A DNA stretch of 64,000 nt from Candidatus Woesebacteria bacterium GW2011_GWF1_31_35 (GTDB lineage Bacteria > Patescibacteriota > Microgenomatia > UBA8517). Under the pieces are notes generated by a model. The model did no database searches and was not told the DNA's origin. It saw nothing but the letters and a program-made list of their open reading frames with translations. The stretch is from NCBI GenBank assembly GCA_001029755.1, contig CP011214.1, forward strand, positions 711,258 to 775,257, given 5' to 3'. Below, piece after piece: positions 27,688 to 36,723 of this stretch; the stretch's first letter is position 1, and each line of letters begins with the position of its first letter. A program made the translations under genes and the position numbers.

Positions 27688-28794
27688 TTATACCAGCTTA
27701 TCTATAAGCTTGTCTAAACCAATTGATCTTGAACCTTTAATTAATACATAAGTATCTTTTGAAAGAAGAGGTAAAAGGATTGATAGTACTTCCTTCTGGT
27801 CGTTAACTAAAAAGGTTTTACTTTTTGATTTTTTTACCTCATCTATTAAATACCTTGAAAGAATACCAACTCCTATCACTACATCAAATTTTGACTTTGA
27901 AACTTCTTTACCCACTCTTCTATGTTCCCCTTCTTCTAACTTTCCAAGTTCCAACATATCTCCCAAAACTGCAATCTTTTTATTATTTCCTGCTAATTTA
28001 TTAAAAACCCTTAAGGTAGAAAGAGTAGCTTCTGGATTACTATTATATGAATCGTCTAAAATGATAGCACCAGATTGATGTTGAAATTGAAATAATCTAT
28101 GTTTTGGATTTTGATAAGTTTTCAATCCTTTATCTATTAAATCATTTGATACTTTTAATATCTCTGCAACCTTTTTTGCCGTATTTGAATTTTGTATAGT
28201 TGGATCTACATTAGTATCAAAATAATAAACCTTTGATTTAGCTAATTTAGCCATATCTTTAGTTAATATATTTGAAGAATTTAACACTGCAAAACCATTT
28301 TCAGGTAAACTTGAAATTAATTTTCCTTTTTCTCCAGCCACTCCTTTTTCGTCACCAAAAAACTCTGTGTGGGTTGGAAAAACATTAGTAACAACTCCAA
28401 TTATTGGTCTAACCAACCAAAGATAAAAATCCATTTCATGAGGATATTCAACTCCCATTTCTAAAATTAGATATTTTGTATCTATGAAACATTTTAGAAT
28501 TGTAGATGGAATATTAAATACTGAATCAATATTTTCTTTTGACCAAACAGTATTTCCTTTAAGTTTTAAAATCCCTGCAAGCATTTCTTTGGTGGTGGTT
28601 TTTCCTGCGCTACCTGTAATACCAATAACTGTTAGACCAAAATAATTTTGCAAAATATATACATATAACTTGGCAATTCTTCTTTTGATTGGATGAAAAA
28701 ACAAATCTAGAATTACATTTTTTAGTCCAGATTTTAACCTTAGATGAACGAATGGGAGGTGTGGTCCAACCAATGATTGAAAATATTTTTTCAT
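27688..28794 (-). CDS. murF: Mur ligase, probably UDP-MurNAc-tripeptide--D-Ala-D-Ala ligase (MurF), with a short N-terminal domain
   Basis: The P-loop GITGSAGKTTTKEMLAGIL, a Mur ligase middle domain and a C-terminal domain are present. It is assigned as murF by elimination, since murC, murD and murE are identified elsewhere, and from its position before mraY. Confidence 0.65.
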   Translation of the reverse strand: MKKYFQSLVGPHLPFVHLRLKSGLKNVILDLFFHPIKRRIAKLYVYILQNYFGLTVIGITGSAGKTTTKEMLAGILKLKGNTVWSKENIDSVFNIPSTILKCFIDTKYLILEMGVEYPHEMDFYLWLVRPIIGVVTNVFPTHTEFFGDEKGVAGEKGKLISSLPENGFAVLNSSNILTKDMAKLAKSKVYYFDTNVDPTIQNSNTAKKVAEILKVSNDLIDKGLKTYQNPKHRLFQFQHQSGAIILDDSYNSNPEATLSTLRVFNKLAGNNKKIAVLGDMLELGKLEEGEHRRVGKEVSKSKFDVVIGVGILSRYLIDEVKKSKSKTFLVNDQKEVLSILLPLLSKDTYVLIKGSRSIGLDKLIDKLV

Positions 28795-28806
28795 TTTGTT
28801 TATATA

Positions 28807-29574
28807 TTATAGCTCTACTCTTTCAATTTTTTTTGATATATCTTGTCCTAAAAATAGGGCTGCTGTTTTGACAAATCTTTCATTTACATCAGTTAAAAAA
28901 TATATATCACTACCTACTTTATCATTAATATTTCTATCTGATTTTATTACATATTCATAAATAACTTTTGAAATCTCTTCAGCTGGATCAACCAATTTAA
29001 TTTTTTCTCCTAAATATCTTTTTATCTGATTTTTAATAAGTGGATAGTGGGTACAACCTAAAATTAATGTATCTATTTTTCCTTTAAAAACTAAAAAGTA
29101 CCTATCAATAAATAAATTAATTTCAGGTCCTTCTATAAATCCTTCTTCAATAAGTGGAACCAACATTGATGCATGAGCTCGAAGAGAAACTTCTTTATAT
29201 GAGCTACTATTAATAGTAGCTCTTGTGCCAACAACACCAATTTTTCCGGATTTTGTAACCTCTAAAGCTTTTTTAATTGCTGGGTCAATAACACCAAAAA
29301 CCGGTACGTTAGAATTCTTCTTTACAATATCTAATGCAAGTGAAGAAACAGTGTTACAAGCAACAACAATACAAGAAACATTTTTTGATAGTAAAAATAA
29401 AGTGTCTTCCTTTGCAAACTTTTCAATTGTTTCTTTACTTCTGGTTCCATATGGAACCCTCGCGGTATCTCCTAAATAAATTAAACTTACATTTGGTAGA
29501 AGTTTTTTGATTTCTTTTACAACTGTTAGACCACCAAGACCTGAATCAAATACTCCAATTATGAAAGGTTCCAC
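28807..29574 (-). CDS. murI: glutamate racemase
   Basis: IGVFDSGLGGLTV...YLGDTARVPYG is the MurI N-terminal signature and a second Cys region CNTVSS is present. Confidence 0.85.
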   Translation of the reverse strand: MEPFIIGVFDSGLGGLTVVKEIKKLLPNVSLIYLGDTARVPYGTRSKETIEKFAKEDTLFLLSKNVSCIVVACNTVSSLALDIVKKNSNVPVFGVIDPAIKKALEVTKSGKIGVVGTRATINSSSYKEVSLRAHASMLVPLIEEGFIEGPEINLFIDRYFLVFKGKIDTLILGCTHYPLIKNQIKRYLGEKIKLVDPAEEISKVIYEYVIKSDRNINDKVGSDIYFLTDVNERFVKTAALFLGQDISKKIERVEL

Positions 29575-30803
29575 ACTGCCTCCTTAAATTTATTTCCTCT
29601 ATCTTTATAATTTAAAAACATATCGAAAGAAGCTGCAGCAGGAGACAAAATTACTACACCATCTTTTTGTGTTATTCCAAATGCTTTTTCAACAATTTTA
29701 TCAATACTAGAAGTTCCCAAATCTATAATCTTTCCTTTAAATTTAGCATCAACAAGAGCTTTTTTAATTTGATTTCGAATTAGACCAATAAGGATAATAT
29801 TTTTGCAATTTTTTCTTTTTGAAATAATCTTGCCTAATTCTAGGTAATCTAAACCTTTATCAGACCCTCCTAATATTAATGTTTCATCCTCAGTAAATGA
29901 ATTAATAGCTGCAATAGTTGATTGTGGTCCTGTTGCGAAAGAATCATTATAAAATTTAATATCTTTAAACTTTCTAACAAATTCCAATCTATGTTCTAAA
30001 CCTTTAAAATTTTTAACTACTTCAAGGATTATTTTTTCATTAATATTTAAAACTTTAGAAACTGAAACTGCTGCTGCTATATTTTCTAAATTATGTTCTC
30101 CTCTTAAGATTAAATCTTTTTTAAATTCATTTTTTAATGTCTTTTTGGAAAAATACATAATATTTGCCTTTGTTTTTCTTGCAAAACTAGAAGAGACTTT
30201 ATATTCCTTATTTATAATTGCCCAATCTGAAGTATTTTGATATTTAACAATATTTTTCTTAGCTTCTATATATTCTTCTTTACTTTCATGCCAATCTAAA
30301 TGATCTAAAGTAATATTTAAAATAACTGCGATATCAGGACTAACCGGAAGATCAATTAATTGAAATGAGGATATTTCCATAACAACATAAGAACTACTTT
30401 TCAATTTAGGAAGTAATTCTAAAAGAGGTTTACCAATGTTTCCTCCCAAAAATACATCAAACTTTGCTTTTTTAAGTATTTCATAAATTAAGGTAGAAGT
30501 TGTTCCTTTGCCTTTTGTACCGGTAACTGCAATAACTTTTCCATTAAATTCATCAAAGAAAATATGTGTTGGAGTAGTTATTCTAATTCCATTTTCATGA
30601 ACTTTAATTAATTCCTTTTTATAAGGATAAATACCAGGCGAGCGAACTATTAAATCAAACTTTTCTAAGTTTGATAAATAATTTTTATCAAATTTTTGAT
30701 CTAATATAGTAACATAGCTTCCTTTATCTTTTAAGAATTTTTCACAATCTTGTCCTTCAAGACCATATCCAATTATTGCAACTTTTTTATCTTTATAATT
30801 CAT
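29559..30803 (-). CDS. murD: UDP-N-acetylmuramoylalanine--D-glutamate ligase
   Basis: The N-terminal Rossmann segment KVAIIGYGLEGQDCEKFL and the P-loop VIAVTGTKGKGTTSTLI are present in a 414-aa protein. Confidence 0.8.
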   Translation of the reverse strand: MNYKDKKVAIIGYGLEGQDCEKFLKDKGSYVTILDQKFDKNYLSNLEKFDLIVRSPGIYPYKKELIKVHENGIRITTPTHIFFDEFNGKVIAVTGTKGKGTTSTLIYEILKKAKFDVFLGGNIGKPLLELLPKLKSSSYVVMEISSFQLIDLPVSPDIAVILNITLDHLDWHESKEEYIEAKKNIVKYQNTSDWAIINKEYKVSSSFARKTKANIMYFSKKTLKNEFKKDLILRGEHNLENIAAAVSVSKVLNINEKIILEVVKNFKGLEHRLEFVRKFKDIKFYNDSFATGPQSTIAAINSFTEDETLILGGSDKGLDYLELGKIISKRKNCKNIILIGLIRNQIKKALVDAKFKGKIIDLGTSSIDKIVEKAFGITQKDGVVILSPAAASFDMFLNYKDRGNKFKEAVWNLS

Positions 30804-31642
30804 TTTTGTAATTTTTTAATTGATAAATTATCTGACAAATAATTATTTTTAGTAATTACACTTCTACCAAGTTCCTTCTCCGTCTTTTTTCTTGCATATC
30901 CAGCAACAGATCCACCACGATTTGCGACTTTTTTGTTTTGAATAAACCCCTTTGGTTTTTCAGTTGTTGAAATTTCAGTAGTTACTCGTTCCCCAAGCAT
31001 GGTAAAAATTAATTCTAGATCTGTCATATTATCTCTTAAGTTAATTTTTGTTTTATTTGGTATATTTTTAAGTTTTCTATATTCACTAGGGGTAATACCA
31101 AATGTAGCTTTTGATATTTCCGCTGTCAGAATTGCATAATCTAACTTATTTTTAATACCTCTCTCTTTCCATTCATCAGTTAAATTTTGACGAATTGCCA
31201 TTCCCCTTAAACGTTTATCTATCCAATCTTTGGGATACCCTTTTTGTTCATAAATACTTTTCATTCTTTCCTGTGCAAGCTCAGGATCTTCAATTTCCTG
31301 AATACGATCATTACCCACACTTGCTAACCACCGTTTGAAAGGCTCTGCATTTGGAGACGGAATTGATTGAATTATTCGAAATAAACCTTCAGTATCTGAA
31401 CAATCAGTCATCCTCATTTTATTATCATCGGCTTTTAACTTGAACTGTCGACAAATTGTCGATAGTTGTGCACCATCATTACTATTCATCCTAATTTTCA
31501 TCTTAAACCAATAATCACTTGAATCTGTACTTTTTGTTAAAATCGAAACCACATCAATAACAGAAAAATACCACTCATTTTTGTACCATTTTCGTCTTAT
31601 TTGTTTATTTTGAAAAATTACTAGACTACTATTTCTCTTCAT
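30800..31642 (-). CDS. Bro-N domain / DinD-like (DNA-damage-inducible protein D family) protein
   Basis: The N-terminus SLVIFQNKQIRRKWYKNEWYFSVIDVVSIL fits the Bro-N pattern (F..IR....E.WF.A.DVA.LL), and the C-terminal half aligns by eye to E. coli DinD (KRLRGMAIRQNL...DYAIL...LRDNMTDLELIFTMLGE). It has 4-nt overlaps with both the murC/B stop and the murD start. Confidence 0.55.
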   Translation of the reverse strand: MKRNSSLVIFQNKQIRRKWYKNEWYFSVIDVVSILTKSTDSSDYWFKMKIRMNSNDGAQLSTICRQFKLKADDNKMRMTDCSDTEGLFRIIQSIPSPNAEPFKRWLASVGNDRIQEIEDPELAQERMKSIYEQKGYPKDWIDKRLRGMAIRQNLTDEWKERGIKNKLDYAILTAEISKATFGITPSEYRKLKNIPNKTKINLRDNMTDLELIFTMLGERVTTEISTTEKPKGFIQNKKVANRGGSVAGYARKKTEKELGRSVITKNNYLSDNLSIKKLQK

Positions 31643-33774
31643 ATATTAATGTATTGTACTTCAGGTTCTAACTTTATTTTAAATTTATTATAAACATCAT
31701 TAGTAATTTCATCTGCTAATTTTTTAATATCATTAAAATTACCTTTACCTTCTGGATTTGTTAAAATCAAGGCGTGTTTATCTGAAACTTTTACGTTTCC
31801 CAATCTTTTTCCTTTCCAACCCGCTTTTTCTATTAAGTAACCTGCAGGAATTTTAAAGCTATTTTCAAATGAGTAAAATTTTATATCTTTATACATTTTC
31901 ACAAGTTCATTTTTTTTACTCAAATTAACTATTGGATTTTTAAAAAATGATCCTGCATTAGGAATTATGTCTGGATTTTCTAATTTTTCAGATCTTACTC
32001 TCAATATCTCATTTCTAATATTTTGTAATTTTAAATCAGTATCTACGTATTTTTGAAGTTTAAGTGTTACATTAGTAATAATAAACTTTTGAGAATTGTC
32101 TTTTTTCTTAAAAATACTTTCTCTATAGCCAAATCTACAATCATCTTTTTTAAATACTATAAATTTATCATTTTTAATATCATATGCAGTTAACTTAAAG
32201 AGAATATCTTTTAATTCTTGTCCATATGCTCCTATGTTTTGAATAGGAGAAGCTCCGACTGTACCAGGAATACCTGAAAGGCATTCTAATCCTTGTAAGT
32301 TTTTACTAACGGAAGTTTCAACTAATTTATCCCAAATTACGCCCGCCTCTGCTATTATTTTTGATCCGTCAACTTTTATACTATCTCCTACATATTTAAT
32401 AACTAAGCCATTAAAATCATTGTCCGATACCAAAATATCACTTCCTCCCCCTATTATAAAAATTGGTAAACTATTTTTCTTTGCAAACTTAATTTGTTTG
32501 ACCAATTCTTCTTTATTATTAACCTCTTTATAATATTTAATCTTTCCACCTACTTTCATTGTGGTTAAATCCTTAAATGAAATATTACCTTTCAAACTTT
32601 CTAGTATTTCTTTAGCCCAAAGATTACTATTTCCAGCTCCCATTACTAAAATAATATCTCCAGGTTTAATATCTTTTTTAATTATTCCTATAATTTCATC
32701 TATTGAATTAACTCCTATCGCATCTTTATGATTAGTTTCTTTTGCTACAATCTTGGGTGTTATCCCAAATGTTTTATTATCTCGTGCTTTAAAAATAGGA
32801 CCAATAATTACTTTGTCAGCTTTTTCAAAACAACTATTATATAGTTTGAATAAAGCATTGGTTCTATTAAAACCATGTGGCTCAACAATTGCCCATATTT
32901 TAGTTTTTGAATTAGCATTTTTTAAAGCTTCTAAAGTTGCTGTAATTGCGGTTGGATGATGTGCATAATCGTCATACACTTTAATTCTATTTTCCTCTCC
33001 AATTAATTCCAATCTTCTTTTAATACCTTTAAAATTTTCAAGAGAATTAATGATATTTTCTTCAGAAATATTTAATTTTTTACCTAAACAAAAAACCATA
33101 TTAGCATTTTTTTGATTATGTTCACCTAAGACTTTTAAATTAAATTTTTTATTAAAACTATCTTTTTGAGTAATTAATACTTTATCTCCTGTTAAATTAT
33201 TAATAAACTTATCAAAACTTTCTCTAAGCTGTTTTACATCTTTAAAATAATCTGGATGATCAAACTCTATATTATTAATAATTGCAATTTTAGGATAATA
33301 ATTTAGAAAATTATCATTAAACTCGTCTGCTTCTACAACAAAATATTTTCCTTTACCAAATCTATAATTTGCCTTCCATTCTGGAATATTTGCTCCTAGT
33401 ATTACTATTGGGTCAAAACCATTATCTTCAAGAAGTTTTCCTACCATTGCAGTTGTTGTTGATTTCCCATGAGTTCCTGCAATTGCAATAACAAACTTAT
33501 CCTTCATTAAATATTTACCCAAAAATTCCTGCCAAGTTATAACTATTCCCCTTTTTCTACCTTCTATTAATTCTGGATTATTTAAACTTTGGTAAAAAAC
33601 AGCAGGGGTAACAATAAGTAAATCAATATCCTTCAAATGATCTTTACTATGACCTTCTTTTTGTAAATCACAGCCTGTAACTTTATAGCCCATTTTAGAA
33701 GCTAAGGAAGCAACACCTGAAACACCACTTCCCGAAATTCCCATGAAATGAATCTTTTTAATTATTTTTTTCAT
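31639..33774 (-). CDS. murC/murB: fused UDP-MurNAc--L-Ala ligase (MurC) / UDP-N-acetylenolpyruvoylglucosamine reductase (MurB)
   Basis: Residues 1 to about 400 are MurC, with IHFMGISGSGVSGVA and AIAGTHGKSTTTAMV. Residues from about 400 to 711 are MurB, with KDLTTMKVGGKIKYY, IIGGGSDILVSD, LSGIPGTVGASPIQNIGAYGQE and RFGYRESIFK (FAD-binding fold). Confidence 0.85.
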   Translation of the reverse strand: MKKIIKKIHFMGISGSGVSGVASLASKMGYKVTGCDLQKEGHSKDHLKDIDLLIVTPAVFYQSLNNPELIEGRKRGIVITWQEFLGKYLMKDKFVIAIAGTHGKSTTTAMVGKLLEDNGFDPIVILGANIPEWKANYRFGKGKYFVVEADEFNDNFLNYYPKIAIINNIEFDHPDYFKDVKQLRESFDKFINNLTGDKVLITQKDSFNKKFNLKVLGEHNQKNANMVFCLGKKLNISEENIINSLENFKGIKRRLELIGEENRIKVYDDYAHHPTAITATLEALKNANSKTKIWAIVEPHGFNRTNALFKLYNSCFEKADKVIIGPIFKARDNKTFGITPKIVAKETNHKDAIGVNSIDEIIGIIKKDIKPGDIILVMGAGNSNLWAKEILESLKGNISFKDLTTMKVGGKIKYYKEVNNKEELVKQIKFAKKNSLPIFIIGGGSDILVSDNDFNGLVIKYVGDSIKVDGSKIIAEAGVIWDKLVETSVSKNLQGLECLSGIPGTVGASPIQNIGAYGQELKDILFKLTAYDIKNDKFIVFKKDDCRFGYRESIFKKKDNSQKFIITNVTLKLQKYVDTDLKLQNIRNEILRVRSEKLENPDIIPNAGSFFKNPIVNLSKKNELVKMYKDIKFYSFENSFKIPAGYLIEKAGWKGKRLGNVKVSDKHALILTNPEGKGNFNDIKKLADEITNDVYNKFKIKLEPEVQYINI

Positions 33775-34775
33775 TTAAGTTTTAGAATTGTATTTGCTAA
33801 TTTAAATGGATCATGTCTAAATAAATGTTCGTTTTTTAGATATCTTGATACGTTTTCATTTATTATTTTCATATTGGGAGCTATTTTTTTGCATTTTTCC
33901 TTATCTACTATTACCAAGTTTTGACCTTCTTCTTTATAAACCTTAAGGATCTCTTTGTCTAAATGATTTTTATTAACTATTAAATAATCGATAGCTTTAT
34001 TATTACCTAAATAAAAAAGAAATGATTTCAAAAAATCTGAAGCTTTGAAATTATCTGTTTCTCCTTCTTTTGTGGCTAAATTTAACACAATGATCAACTT
34101 AGCTTTTGATTTAATTATTGCTTCAGTTACACCTTCAACTAATAAATGAGGCAGGATACTTGTATAAAGATCTCCTGGAGAAAATACAATTTTATCTGCA
34201 TCTTTAATTGCATTTAAAACATCTTCATTGCTATCCACTCTTGAATCAAAATAAATTCTTATAATTCTGTCATTTGGATCAAAATTTTTATCTTTAACTC
34301 TTGTGTCAATGTTTTTTTCTCCAATTACAATATTACCTTTTTTGGTTTCTGCAACAAGTTGAACATTCGTTATAGTTGCGGGTACAATTTTAGCCATAAT
34401 TCTAAAAAGTTCTCTTTCCGCTACTATTCCCCTGTCTTGACCTGAATAAATATGATCTAATCTTGCTGTTATTAAATTACCAATTGAATGACCTTTTAAA
34501 GGTCCAGATGATTCTTCTAACCTATCATCAAAAAGTCTTTGAGCTACTTTTCTTTGATTTTCATCTTCCATTAAGGCAAGCATACAACGCCTTAAATCTC
34601 CAGGAGGCAAAACTCCCAATTCTGTTCTTAATCTTCCAGAGCTACCACCACTATCCCAAGTACTAGCAACAGCTGTTATTAATTTTGTTTCGTTTAAATC
34701 TCTAAGTCCATCAAGAAGATGAAATTGACCAGTACCACCTCCAAAAGTAACTATTTTCTGTTTATATTTAGCCAT
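33771..34775 (-). CDS. yvcK: YvcK/CofD-like gluconeogenesis-factor family protein (UPF0052)
   Basis: FGGGTG, DSGGSSGRLR, PPGDLR, GHSIGNL, SPGDLYTS and GETDNFKASD match the B. subtilis YvcK signature blocks in the same order. Confidence 0.85.
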   Translation of the reverse strand: MAKYKQKIVTFGGGTGQFHLLDGLRDLNETKLITAVASTWDSGGSSGRLRTELGVLPPGDLRRCMLALMEDENQRKVAQRLFDDRLEESSGPLKGHSIGNLITARLDHIYSGQDRGIVAERELFRIMAKIVPATITNVQLVAETKKGNIVIGEKNIDTRVKDKNFDPNDRIIRIYFDSRVDSNEDVLNAIKDADKIVFSPGDLYTSILPHLLVEGVTEAIIKSKAKLIIVLNLATKEGETDNFKASDFLKSFLFYLGNNKAIDYLIVNKNHLDKEILKVYKEEGQNLVIVDKEKCKKIAPNMKIINENVSRYLKNEHLFRHDPFKLANTILKLK

Positions 34776-36723
34776 TTATTCTTTTACTCATTTTTCTTTC
34801 TGCATTTTGTAATTGCTCTGGCGTATTAATTCCCTGCCATTCATTTGCATCAGGTAATTTATAAACCGAAACTTTTTGATTTTGGCTTAAAGCAAACTTA
34901 ATCAAATCAGTTAAATAATATTCTCCTGTCACAGGACTTTTGTTAATCTTATTAATATTTTTTCTTAACCAGTTAGATTTAAAAACATAAAGACCATCAT
35001 TTACTTCTTTTACCTTTTTTTGAGATTCATTTGCATCTTTTTCTTCAATAATTCCAATTAAATTATCATTTTTATCCCTAATAACTCTTCCTAATCCAAA
35101 TGGATTTTCTTGAATTAAACTCACGAATGTTAAAGAAGCATTTGAGTTTTTATGTGTTTCAATAACATTTTTGATTGTGGCTGGCTTATAAAAAGCACTA
35201 TCATCACCATATATTACTAAAATATCAATATATTTTAAATCTATTTTCTTTAAAGCTTTTAAAACAGAATTACCCGTGCCTAGAGTAGTTTCTTGAATAG
35301 CGTAATTGCATTCTTTCGATATTTCTCTTAATACTAAATTCCTTTTATATCCAACAACGGGAACTAAATTAATAACCCCTGCATTTCTTAAGTTTTCCAT
35401 CGAATATGAAATCATTGGTCTATCACAAATATTATGTAGAACTTTCGGCAAATCTGACTTCATCCTTGTTCCTCGACCTGCTGCAAGGATAACTCCAGCC
35501 AAATCTTTATAACCATTCAAAATATTTTTGACAAACTTTTGATCACTCCAAGGATGTTCAAAACCCCCATAAGCCATAGTTATTTCATGACCTTTTCCAC
35601 AAAAAACTAATGCATCTCCTTTTTTGGCAATCCTAATAGCATATGAAATTGCTTCACCACGTTCAGGAATACAGATATAATTTTTTGCATACTTTTTCAT
35701 TTGTTTTAAAATATCAAAGATATTTTCACTTCGAGGATCTTCTGCGGTTAAAATTGAAATGTCAGCAATTTCACCTGAAATCTTACCCATTTTAGATCTC
35801 TTTTTAATATCTCTTTCTCCAGCGCATCCAAATACTGAAATTAACCTCCCTTTGGTAATAGTTTTTAAATAACCTAAAACTGCTTCTAAAGAATCAGGTG
35901 TGTGAGCAAAATCAACAAAAATTTTAATACCAAGAGAATTTTCTATTTCTTCAAGTCTTCCGATTGGAAGTTTAAATGAATTAAGTGCGTTTTTAGATTC
36001 TTTTTCAGAAATCCCAAGTTTTTCACATACTTCAATTGCTGTCTGGGCATTTATATTATTAAAATCACCTTCCAATATTTTTAACTTTGTAGACTTTGGA
36101 CTAATAATTTGAATTTTGCAGGATTTTAAAAATGACATCTTAGTATTTTTATAATTTTTAAAAGTTTTATGATAATCAAGGTGTTCCGGAGCAATGTTAG
36201 TTAATACCCCAATGTCAAACTTGATTCCTGCAATCCTGCCTTGTTCAATTCCATGTGATGAAACTTCTAAAATTACATAATTAAATCCTTTATCAACAAA
36301 ACCCTTTAACATTTTATTTAAGGTAATTACGTCAGGAGTAGTGACATGATATCCAGGAACTGAAATAGAACTTATAAGCCCTGCCTTTTTACCTAATTTA
36401 GTTAAAATATGGTAGATTAAATGACAGGTTGTTGTCTTTCCTTTGGTTCCAGTTACTCCAATTATGGTTAATTTACTTGAAGGATTTTTGTAATATTCTG
36501 AGGCTAATTCTCCTAATTTTTCTCTCGAATTTGAAACTTTTATATAATTTACACCAGAAGCTATTTTGATATTCTCTCCGCTATGATATTCAGTTTCGCC
36601 ATAAATAATTTTTGCCCCGTTTTTAATAGCCTCATCTATATGATCATGTCCATCAGAAATTTGGCCTTTAATTGCTACAAATGTATCCCCAGATTTTATC
36701 AACCTTGAATCAAATGAAATCAT
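34768..36723 (-). CDS. murE: fused MurE (UDP-MurNAc-L-Ala-D-Glu--diamino-acid ligase) plus a GlmU-type N-terminal sugar-1-phosphate uridylyltransferase domain (no LbH acetyltransferase domain)
   Basis: Residues 1 to about 405 are MurE, with DSRLIKSGDTFVAIKG, IIGVTGTKGKTTTCHLI and an EDPR variant of the DNPR motif. Residues 406 to 651 begin LAGVILAAGRGTRMKSDLPKVLH, which is almost identical to the GlmU pyrophosphorylase signature, and end GINTPEQL. No hexapeptide repeats follow. Confidence 0.8.
   Translation of the reverse strand: MISFDSRLIKSGDTFVAIKGQISDGHDHIDEAIKNGAKIIYGETEYHSGENIKIASGVNYIKVSNSREKLGELASEYYKNPSSKLTIIGVTGTKGKTTTCHLIYHILTKLGKKAGLISSISVPGYHVTTPDVITLNKMLKGFVDKGFNYVILEVSSHGIEQGRIAGIKFDIGVLTNIAPEHLDYHKTFKNYKNTKMSFLKSCKIQIISPKSTKLKILEGDFNNINAQTAIEVCEKLGISEKESKNALNSFKLPIGRLEEIENSLGIKIFVDFAHTPDSLEAVLGYLKTITKGRLISVFGCAGERDIKKRSKMGKISGEIADISILTAEDPRSENIFDILKQMKKYAKNYICIPERGEAISYAIRIAKKGDALVFCGKGHEITMAYGGFEHPWSDQKFVKNILNGYKDLAGVILAAGRGTRMKSDLPKVLHNICDRPMISYSMENLRNAGVINLVPVVGYKRNLVLREISKECNYAIQETTLGTGNSVLKALKKIDLKYIDILVIYGDDSAFYKPATIKNVIETHKNSNASLTFVSLIQENPFGLGRVIRDKNDNLIGIIEEKDANESQKKVKEVNDGLYVFKSNWLRKNINKINKSPVTGEYYLTDLIKFALSQNQKVSVYKLPDANEWQGINTPEQLQNAERKMSKRING

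Follow-up and report, generated by a model that had tools for sequence, protein, structure and literature searches.

The locus examined here raises the question of whether one gene in a division and cell wall (dcw) cluster really encodes two enzymes of peptidoglycan synthesis in a single chain and, if so, whether their fusion implies that substrate is passed directly from one to the other. The window analysed is a stretch of 64,000 nucleotides (nt; 64 kb) from Candidatus Woesebacteria bacterium GW2011_GWF1_31_35 (contig CP011214.1, positions 711,258 to 775,257), a groundwater organism with a small genome that belongs to the Patescibacteria or Candidate Phyla Radiation (CPR). Its minus strand carries an open reading frame (ORF), here called murC-murB, at positions 31639..33774, which runs in a single frame from ATG to TGA and specifies 711 amino acids (aa) plus the stop codon. 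The original prediction, made from the sequence alone, saw in it a MurC ligase followed by a complete MurB reductase, and our analysis agrees: very probably the protein is a genuine bifunctional enzyme made up of MurC (UDP-MurNAc:L-alanine ligase) and MurB (UDP-N-acetylenolpyruvoylglucosamine reductase), the two halves of which act independently. MurB and MurC catalyse consecutive steps of the pathway, as the original prediction also said.

The ORF was searched against the Pfam and NCBIfam models. Five Pfam domains scored above their gathering scores: Mur_ligase (PF01225; aa 7-87), Mur_ligase_M (PF08245; aa 98-205) and Mur_ligase_C (PF02875; aa 253-381), which fill the N-terminal half in the order expected of MurC, and then FAD_binding_4 (PF01565; aa 415-532; 68.6 bits) and MurB_C (PF02873; aa 586-709; 96.9 bits). 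All motifs quoted in the prediction were found where they were to be expected, namely GISGSGVSG (aa 12-20) and AGTHGKSTTT (aa 99-108) in the MurC half, and KVGGKIKYY (aa 407-415), GGGSDILV (aa 442-449), GIPGTVGASPIQNIGAYGQE (aa 501-520) and FGYRESIFK (aa 548-556) in the MurB half. The NCBIfam MurB models pass their cut-offs (NF000755, 295.3 versus 277 bits; TIGR00179, 223.6 versus 144.5 bits). The N-terminal half is matched best by the murC equivalog TIGR01082, the score of which is weighed further on, and next by the models for Mpl (201.8; cut-off 388.7), MurC-Ddl (162.8) and MurD (97.6). A tblastn search of the window detected no second copy of murC or murB, so that the predicted lack of standalone genes in the 64 kb holds. 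The same five-domain architecture is found in all of the best 120 full-length homology clusters (120/120; 51-98% identity) drawn from the NCBI, JGI, ENA and Logan assemblies; 105 of these form the family alignment referred to below as the fused relatives, and the junction between the two enzymes is in frame throughout. Orthologous clusters with this in-frame junction at 51-72% identity number more than 100.

The MurC half (32587..33774, minus strand; aa 1-396) was delimited by Pfam, NCBIfam, motif alignment and Foldseek. It contains the UDP-binding loop GISGSGVSG, the P-loop AGTHGKSTTT, and the motifs EADE, EFDHPD, GEHNQKNA, KRRL and DDYAHHP. In a phmmer alignment AGTHGKSTTT, EADE, the DH of EFDHPD, GEHNQKNA, the RR pair and DDYAHHP coincide with identical residues in the Haemophilus influenzae MurC 1gqq, and at the motif positions the 105 fused relatives show no variation or at least 90% conservation. 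The residues reportedly defined by Bouhss and colleagues in 1997 as catalytic in Mur ligases are the Lys of GKT/S, the Glu of EADE, the His of DH, the two Asn of HNxxN, an Arg and the Asp of DDY. Foldseek superimposes this half on the H. influenzae MurC 1p3d with a template modelling score (TM-score, here always normalised by target) of 0.79. From these features we infer that the MurC half carries the activity that adds L-alanine to UDP-MurNAc.

The MurB half (31639..32586, minus strand; aa 397-711 plus the stop codon) was delimited by the same four approaches. Its flavin adenine dinucleotide (FAD)-binding motifs are GGGSDILV and PGTVGASPIQNIGAYG, and phmmer aligns CRFGYRESIFK, NAGSFFKNP and LEPEV with identical motifs of the Pseudomonas aeruginosa MurB 4jay. 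We take these three motifs to be the equivalents of R159, S229 and E325 of Escherichia coli, the catalytic Arg, Ser and Glu. None of the fused relatives departs from R551 or S609, and E703/E705 are at least 90% conserved among them. The fold predicted for this half is that of MurB, as the original prediction had supposed: the TM-score is 0.85 both to 4jay and to 1mbb, two type I MurB structures. Alignments with type I structures span the entire half, those with type II structures (e.g. 1hsk) only aa 393-616. Judged by these alignments the MurB half is type I-like, apart from an absent segment with an x-Y-[ED]-S-L motif that is taken up below.

An AlphaFold2 model of the full protein, built on the 105-sequence alignment, has a mean predicted local distance difference test (pLDDT) of 91.0 and a predicted template modelling score (pTM) of 0.60. 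A pTM this low despite a pLDDT of 91 means that no orientation between the two enzymes is confidently fixed. Searches of the PDB with phmmer and Foldseek returned no chain that carries both MurC and MurB. On the evidence of motifs, conservation and fold, both halves are probably active.

The fusion junction (32563..32628, minus strand; aa 383-404) reads SNLWAKEILESLKG followed by NISFKDLT, and the boundary between MurC and MurB falls at aa 396/397 (nt ~32587). Here the native C-terminal helix of MurC (MGAGNSNLWAKEILESLKG) abuts the native N-terminus of MurB (NISFKDLTTMKVGG) with zero linker. The model places a helix at residues 383-393, with a pLDDT of ~80 over residues 391-400; standalone MurC proteins that we sampled terminate 12-15 residues past MGAG. 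Trp386 and Thr404 are invariant in the alignment of fused relatives, and the spacing between them is 15-16 residues in 76 of the 105, including 49 with exactly the 15 seen here. An internal start of MurB at Met406, which has AAGGA 10 nt upstream, was considered and is unlikely: the Met is replaced by Leu or Phe in relatives, and a start there would also cut off the invariant Thr404.

Comparison of the murC/murB arrangement in relatives, to which the original prediction had pointed, brought out fused, split and triple-fused forms. A relative with 68% identity (L081/L082) has the same operon, including the MurE/nucleotidyltransferase fusion and yvcK, and its murD follows directly after murC-murB with a 4-nt overlap. 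Among the best 120 full-length clusters, 104 are MurC-MurB and 16 are MurC-MurB-MurD proteins of 1049-1171 aa. The latter (P0008, P0014, P0033, P0035, P0042, P0044, P0046, P0052, P0056, P0067, P0079, P0082, P0087, P0092, P0108 and P0113) unite three consecutive cytoplasmic steps and occur at several places on the family tree. A further protein, P0140 (791 aa), consists of MurB and then ~455 more residues, possibly MurD. A literature search for a MurC-MurB fusion in CPR bacteria or Woesebacteria, or for a trifunctional MurC-MurB-MurD protein, found nothing relevant.

The three closest GTDB species-representative genomes that we found, L001 (Woesebacteria; 61% identity), L002 and L003 (58%), encode MurC and MurB in two distinct genes that do not share a frame. 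In L002 (7180-7215) the two genes share a plain ATGA overlap. In L001 (7100-7200) and L003 (1240-1300) the ATG of murB lies within the Leu-Trp-Ala codons (TTATGGGC) of murC, and the overlap is ~30 nt. From the Trp codon to the codon equivalent to Thr404 there are 23 nt in L001 and L003 versus 45 nt in the murC-murB gene described here. The idea that L001 and L003 are fused genes split by 1-nt sequencing errors was rejected: the junction is ~22 nt shorter and both proteins have natural termini. When the MurC half alone served as query, 119 of the best 120 clusters were standalone MurC proteins (376-427 aa, 54-68% identity), the sampled tails of which end naturally, and fusion as the universal state of the family was rejected on that count. 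The homology search appears to favour matches of query length, and the MurC-half query even missed the 98%-identical fused protein P0001; neither match list therefore shows how common fused forms really are relative to unfused ones. On a tree of 238 MurC parts constructed by the unweighted pair group method with arithmetic mean (UPGMA), at least 38 Fitch state changes are needed, and for ~21% of the parts the nearest neighbour is of the opposite state. Each of the unfused proteins of L001, L002 and L003 shares 68-71% identity with fused proteins and only 58-60% with the other two. By these sequence comparisons, in which the signal is large, the fusion is labile in this clade, being easily gained and lost. 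The interleaving of fused and unfused forms and the repeated fission indicate that the covalent link is dispensable, not obligatory.

The architecture is also spread beyond the immediate relatives. The best 150 representatives of 50%-identity clusters include 64 MurC-MurB proteins and 3 with extra domains, i.e., at least 67 fused forms, from several lineages that are unrelated. The novelty claimed in the original prediction was thus overstated, the more so as the same domain order had been characterised in Verrucomicrobium spinosum in 2016 (PMC4803751). Most other fused representatives are 31-37% identical to our protein, compared with 47-51% for standalone MurC and 49-55% for standalone MurB; since unfused homologues are closer than most fused families, fusions arose several times. 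One fused family (P0206) has unfused MurC proteins of Abditibacteriota/Armatimonadota as its nearest neighbours. Two further genomes with a fused ORF are L013, from the Solirubrobacterales, and L015, a second one from the Patescibacteria. Genome-contig matches over query residues 1-710 were discarded as evidence of fusion in themselves; an ORF check showed most of them to be adjacent separate genes, and only L013 and L015 are fused. In Chloroflexota, Bacteroidota, Alphaproteobacteria, cyanobacteria and other groups murC is followed by a separate murB, and this adjacency in many phyla provides the substrate for repeated fusion.

From this a simple route to the fusion can be proposed. The genes murC and murB are adjacent in this order in many phyla, and in this compact operon neighbouring genes have overlaps of a few bases. 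Through a small indel at the overlap of two such translationally coupled neighbours, murB would come into frame with murC and the stop codon would be lost, so that MurC's own C-terminal helix would run straight into MurB's own N-terminus. An indel origin is supported by the ATGA overlap in L002, by the start of murB within murC in L001 and L003, and by the widespread adjacency of the two genes. In the resulting protein, the C-terminal half would convert UDP-GlcNAc-enolpyruvate to UDP-MurNAc with FAD and NADPH, the N-terminal half would add L-alanine with ATP, and each half would act as an independent enzyme. The likely benefit would be 1:1 expression and the co-location of producer and consumer of UDP-MurNAc; a kinetic gain, if any, would come from proximity rather than from a dedicated tunnel.

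An indel may also be an error of sequencing or assembly that merged two overlapping genes. Such an origin would fit with L001, L002 and L003, in which murC and murB are separate, overlapping and in different frames, and a 1-nt indel in the A/T-rich junction would switch between the fused and split states. However, all of the 23 contigs read (23/23, out of 80 index blocks) carry this ORF between unchanged neighbours, and NCBI holds exactly this sequence of 711 aa (AKM83646.1, KKP23576.1 and others, assigned to Candidatus Woesebacteria), the longest contig with it, of 826,104 bp, being taken as the complete genome. The 15-residue spacing at the junction is common to the 49 independent fused relatives already mentioned, and the MurC helix and the MurB N-terminus lie in one frame together with their conserved residues. 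There is accordingly no frameshift around aa 395-405, where the junction had been predicted, and a frameshift artefact, which we rejected on these grounds, is extremely improbable. Several other observations weigh against our reading of two active and independent enzymes. How many forms are fused or unfused was judged from searches with a bias towards query length and from a UPGMA tree that is crude, and some metagenome proteins called fused or unfused may owe that state to indel errors. The conserved zero-length junction could be a fixed interface between the enzymes that AlphaFold missed, which would favour channelling. With 331.3 bits the murC equivalog TIGR01082 stays marginally below its trusted cut-off of 335.1. 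The central domain of MurC (33142..33189, minus strand; aa 196-211; from the Pfam and phmmer alignments) is shortened to 16 residues versus ~62 in H. influenzae MurC (~222-283), a net loss of ~45, and the Mur_ligase_M match spans only profile positions 1-124 of 200. We take the missing region to be a small extra beta-sheet; its absence is the reason why TIGR01082 falls just below the cut-off. At 32029..32055 (minus strand; aa 574-582, between QKYVD and TDLK) the MurB half has lost a segment of ~14 residues bearing the conserved x-Y-[ED]-S-L motif, presumably the counterpart of the Tyr190 loop in E. coli-type MurB. With both losses, altered kinetics or specificity is possible. Taken further, the same low score and deletions might mean that one half is degenerate and non-catalytic, as has been proposed of the divergent Mur-ligase domain attached to MurB in Opitutae, with the real enzyme encoded elsewhere; our inspection was limited to 64 kb of the genome. 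This is very unlikely, in view of the catalytic and cofactor-binding motifs of both halves, which are intact and invariant (or at least 90% conserved) across the 105 relatives, of the confident folding of both the MurC and the MurB half, and of the dcw cluster, the expected site, which holds no other murB or murC. Moreover, the same deletions occur in many relatives: the short central domain in 68 of the 105 (most others are ~24 residues longer) and the loss of the MurB segment in 27 including this protein (it is present in the remaining 78). This indicates streamlining tolerated by selection. Type II MurB enzymes are not known to have a Tyr190 loop either.

If both halves are active, the protein might still be a dedicated channelling machine, in which the MurB site hands UDP-MurNAc directly to that of MurC within a physical Mur complex of these very small cells. 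The two reactions are consecutive, the junction is linker-less and of conserved length, MurD, the next enzyme, has been added to the same chain in relatives, MurE is fused too in this operon, and the literature has proposed complexes of Mur enzymes as well as active sites that are neighbours in MurE-MurF (PMC10214165). Nevertheless we hold such a machine to be improbable. No interface between the enzymes is confidently predicted (pTM of only 0.60 versus a pLDDT of 91), the dense interleaving of fused and unfused states among close relatives shows fusion to be dispensable, and the domain order MurC, MurB, MurD tracks gene order instead of reaction order. In addition, the MurC domain of V. spinosum is functional alone (PMC4803751), and other natural Mur chimeras link enzymes that are not consecutive (PMC10214165). 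With no fixed orientation in the model and close relatives repeatedly unfused, the statement in the original prediction that the fusion implies substrate channelling finds no support here. A wider version of the idea would have the cytoplasmic peptidoglycan pathway of Woesebacteria-like CPR bacteria condensing into multi-enzyme polypeptides (MurC-MurB, MurC-MurB-MurD and the MurE-GlmU type), a fixed assembly line passing on UDP-sugar intermediates, with the junction as a true interface and the losses in MurC and MurB as adaptations to it; this, too, seems to us a doubtful proposition. Rather, a fusion that has been undone many times, and at other times extended to MurC-MurB-MurD, has the look of a side effect of gene packing, close to neutral or of slight advantage, and not of an obligatory device, with MurC and MurB acting as separate enzymes on a shared chain.

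The surroundings of the gene are those of a dcw cluster, the order on the minus strand being mraZ, rsmH, ftsI, murA, murE-glmU(N), yvcK, murC-murB, a Bro-N domain gene, murD, murI, murF, mraY, ftsW and murG. The fusion of murE with a GlmU-type nucleotidyltransferase (34768..36723, minus strand) has the same architecture in L081. It had been predicted as a MurE-GlmU fusion: the MurE ORF is indeed fused, and of GlmU only the nucleotidyltransferase half is included (aa 410-650), domain searches of this ORF having detected no left-handed beta-helix acetyltransferase domain. It is followed by yvcK (33771-34775), which encodes a CofD-like UDP-GlcNAc-binding protein; the start of murC-murB overlaps the yvcK stop codon (ATGA), and its own stop codon overlaps in the same way (ATGA) with the start of the Bro-N gene. 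All four Mur ligases in the operon are short, with ~396 aa for the MurC part, 414 for MurD, ~405 for the MurE part and 368 for MurF, and of the 200 profile positions of Mur_ligase_M their central domains cover no more than 1-125 to 1-153. This suggests that the same sub-region of the Mur ligases has been trimmed throughout the lineage.

The gene with the Bro-N domain (30800..31642, minus strand; 280 aa), of a phage-type family, lies between murC-murB and murD (29559..30803, minus strand), the gene that in relatives stands directly 3' of murC-murB and in some of them is fused to it as MurC-MurB-MurD. It occupies the exact ATGA junction of murC-murB and murD, and ATGA overlaps have been re-formed on either side. 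Along its entire length the protein matches phrog_15286, a phage family (E 2e-94), the GC content of the gene is slightly higher than in its neighbours (0.31 versus 0.26-0.27), and it is not found at the equivalent position in the relative L081, although all contigs read for this population (23/23) carry it. It looks like a phage-derived gene captured within an essential operon. Further along, murI (28807-29574) and murF (27688-28794) are separated by 12 nt (28794-28807). In L081 the gene ddl, for a D-Ala-D-Ala ligase, is found between murI and murF; it is missing here, and a tblastn search with the Ddl of L081 gave no match in the 64-kb window.

The practical consequence of the finding is one of annotation. 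The deposited protein is named only 'UDP-N-acetylenolpyruvoylglucosamine reductase', which stands for MurB; a pathway reconstruction based on this name would wrongly score murC as missing. The hundreds of closely related fused, unfused and triple-fused versions amount to a natural experiment on the kinetic or stability benefit of Mur fusions, and the compact 711-aa protein might suit a first structure of a MurC-MurB chimera. No new mechanism is revealed and the view of the pathway is unchanged: the protein is an ordinary variant.

The closest known system is the 'MurB/C' protein of V. spinosum, with MurC at residues 1-477 and MurB at 479-770 (Naqvi et al. 2016, PMC4803751). Both of its activities were established by complementation; the activity of MurC was also measured in vitro, while that of MurB was not demonstrable in vitro (PMC4803751). 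The MurB/C proteins of V. spinosum and of further Verrucomicrobiales and Methylacidiphilales share with ours the five Pfam domains in the same order, the near-direct join (477/479 being where the published constructs divide the V. spinosum protein), the pairing of two consecutive reactions, and the position as sole murB/murC in the cluster (PMC4803751). Our protein is ~60 residues shorter than that of V. spinosum (711 versus 770), and differs from it in a MurC whose central domain is trimmed and in a MurB that best matches E. coli/Pseudomonas-type structures. Furthermore, the fusion is labile in the family described here, whereas in Verrucomicrobia it was reported as a fixed signature of the lineage (PMC4803751). 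Indirect evidence, from a comparison set without Verrucomicrobial sequences, points to an origin independent of the Verrucomicrobial fusion: most other fused families are more distant than unfused homologues, the P0206 family lies beside unfused MurC of Abditibacteriota, and the gene context is different. Compared to standalone enzymes (H. influenzae MurC 1P3D; the type I MurB of E. coli, 1MBB, and P. aeruginosa, 4JAY), each half resembles its counterpart in fold and motifs; the differences are the covalent joining of the halves, the reduction of ~62 central residues of MurC to 16, and the absence of the Tyr190-loop segment from MurB.

Natural Mur chimeras were recently surveyed and comprise MurE-MurF, MurC-Ddl, MurC-MurB, MurG-MurC and MurD-FtsW (PMC10214165). 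MurC-MurB made up 11% of the Mur chimeras in UniProt and was placed in Verrucomicrobia, unidentified species having been excluded (Shirakawa et al. 2023, PMC10214165). The MurC-MurB proteins seen here in CPR bacteria, in Solirubrobacterales (L013) and in an Abditibacteriota-like lineage (P0206) are not described in that survey. The head-to-tail join without a linker is as in the MurE-MurF of Bordetella pertussis (PMC10214165). The murC-murB gene of this Woesebacteria genome, the product of which was itself already deposited, is thus a known kind of chimera in a further lineage.

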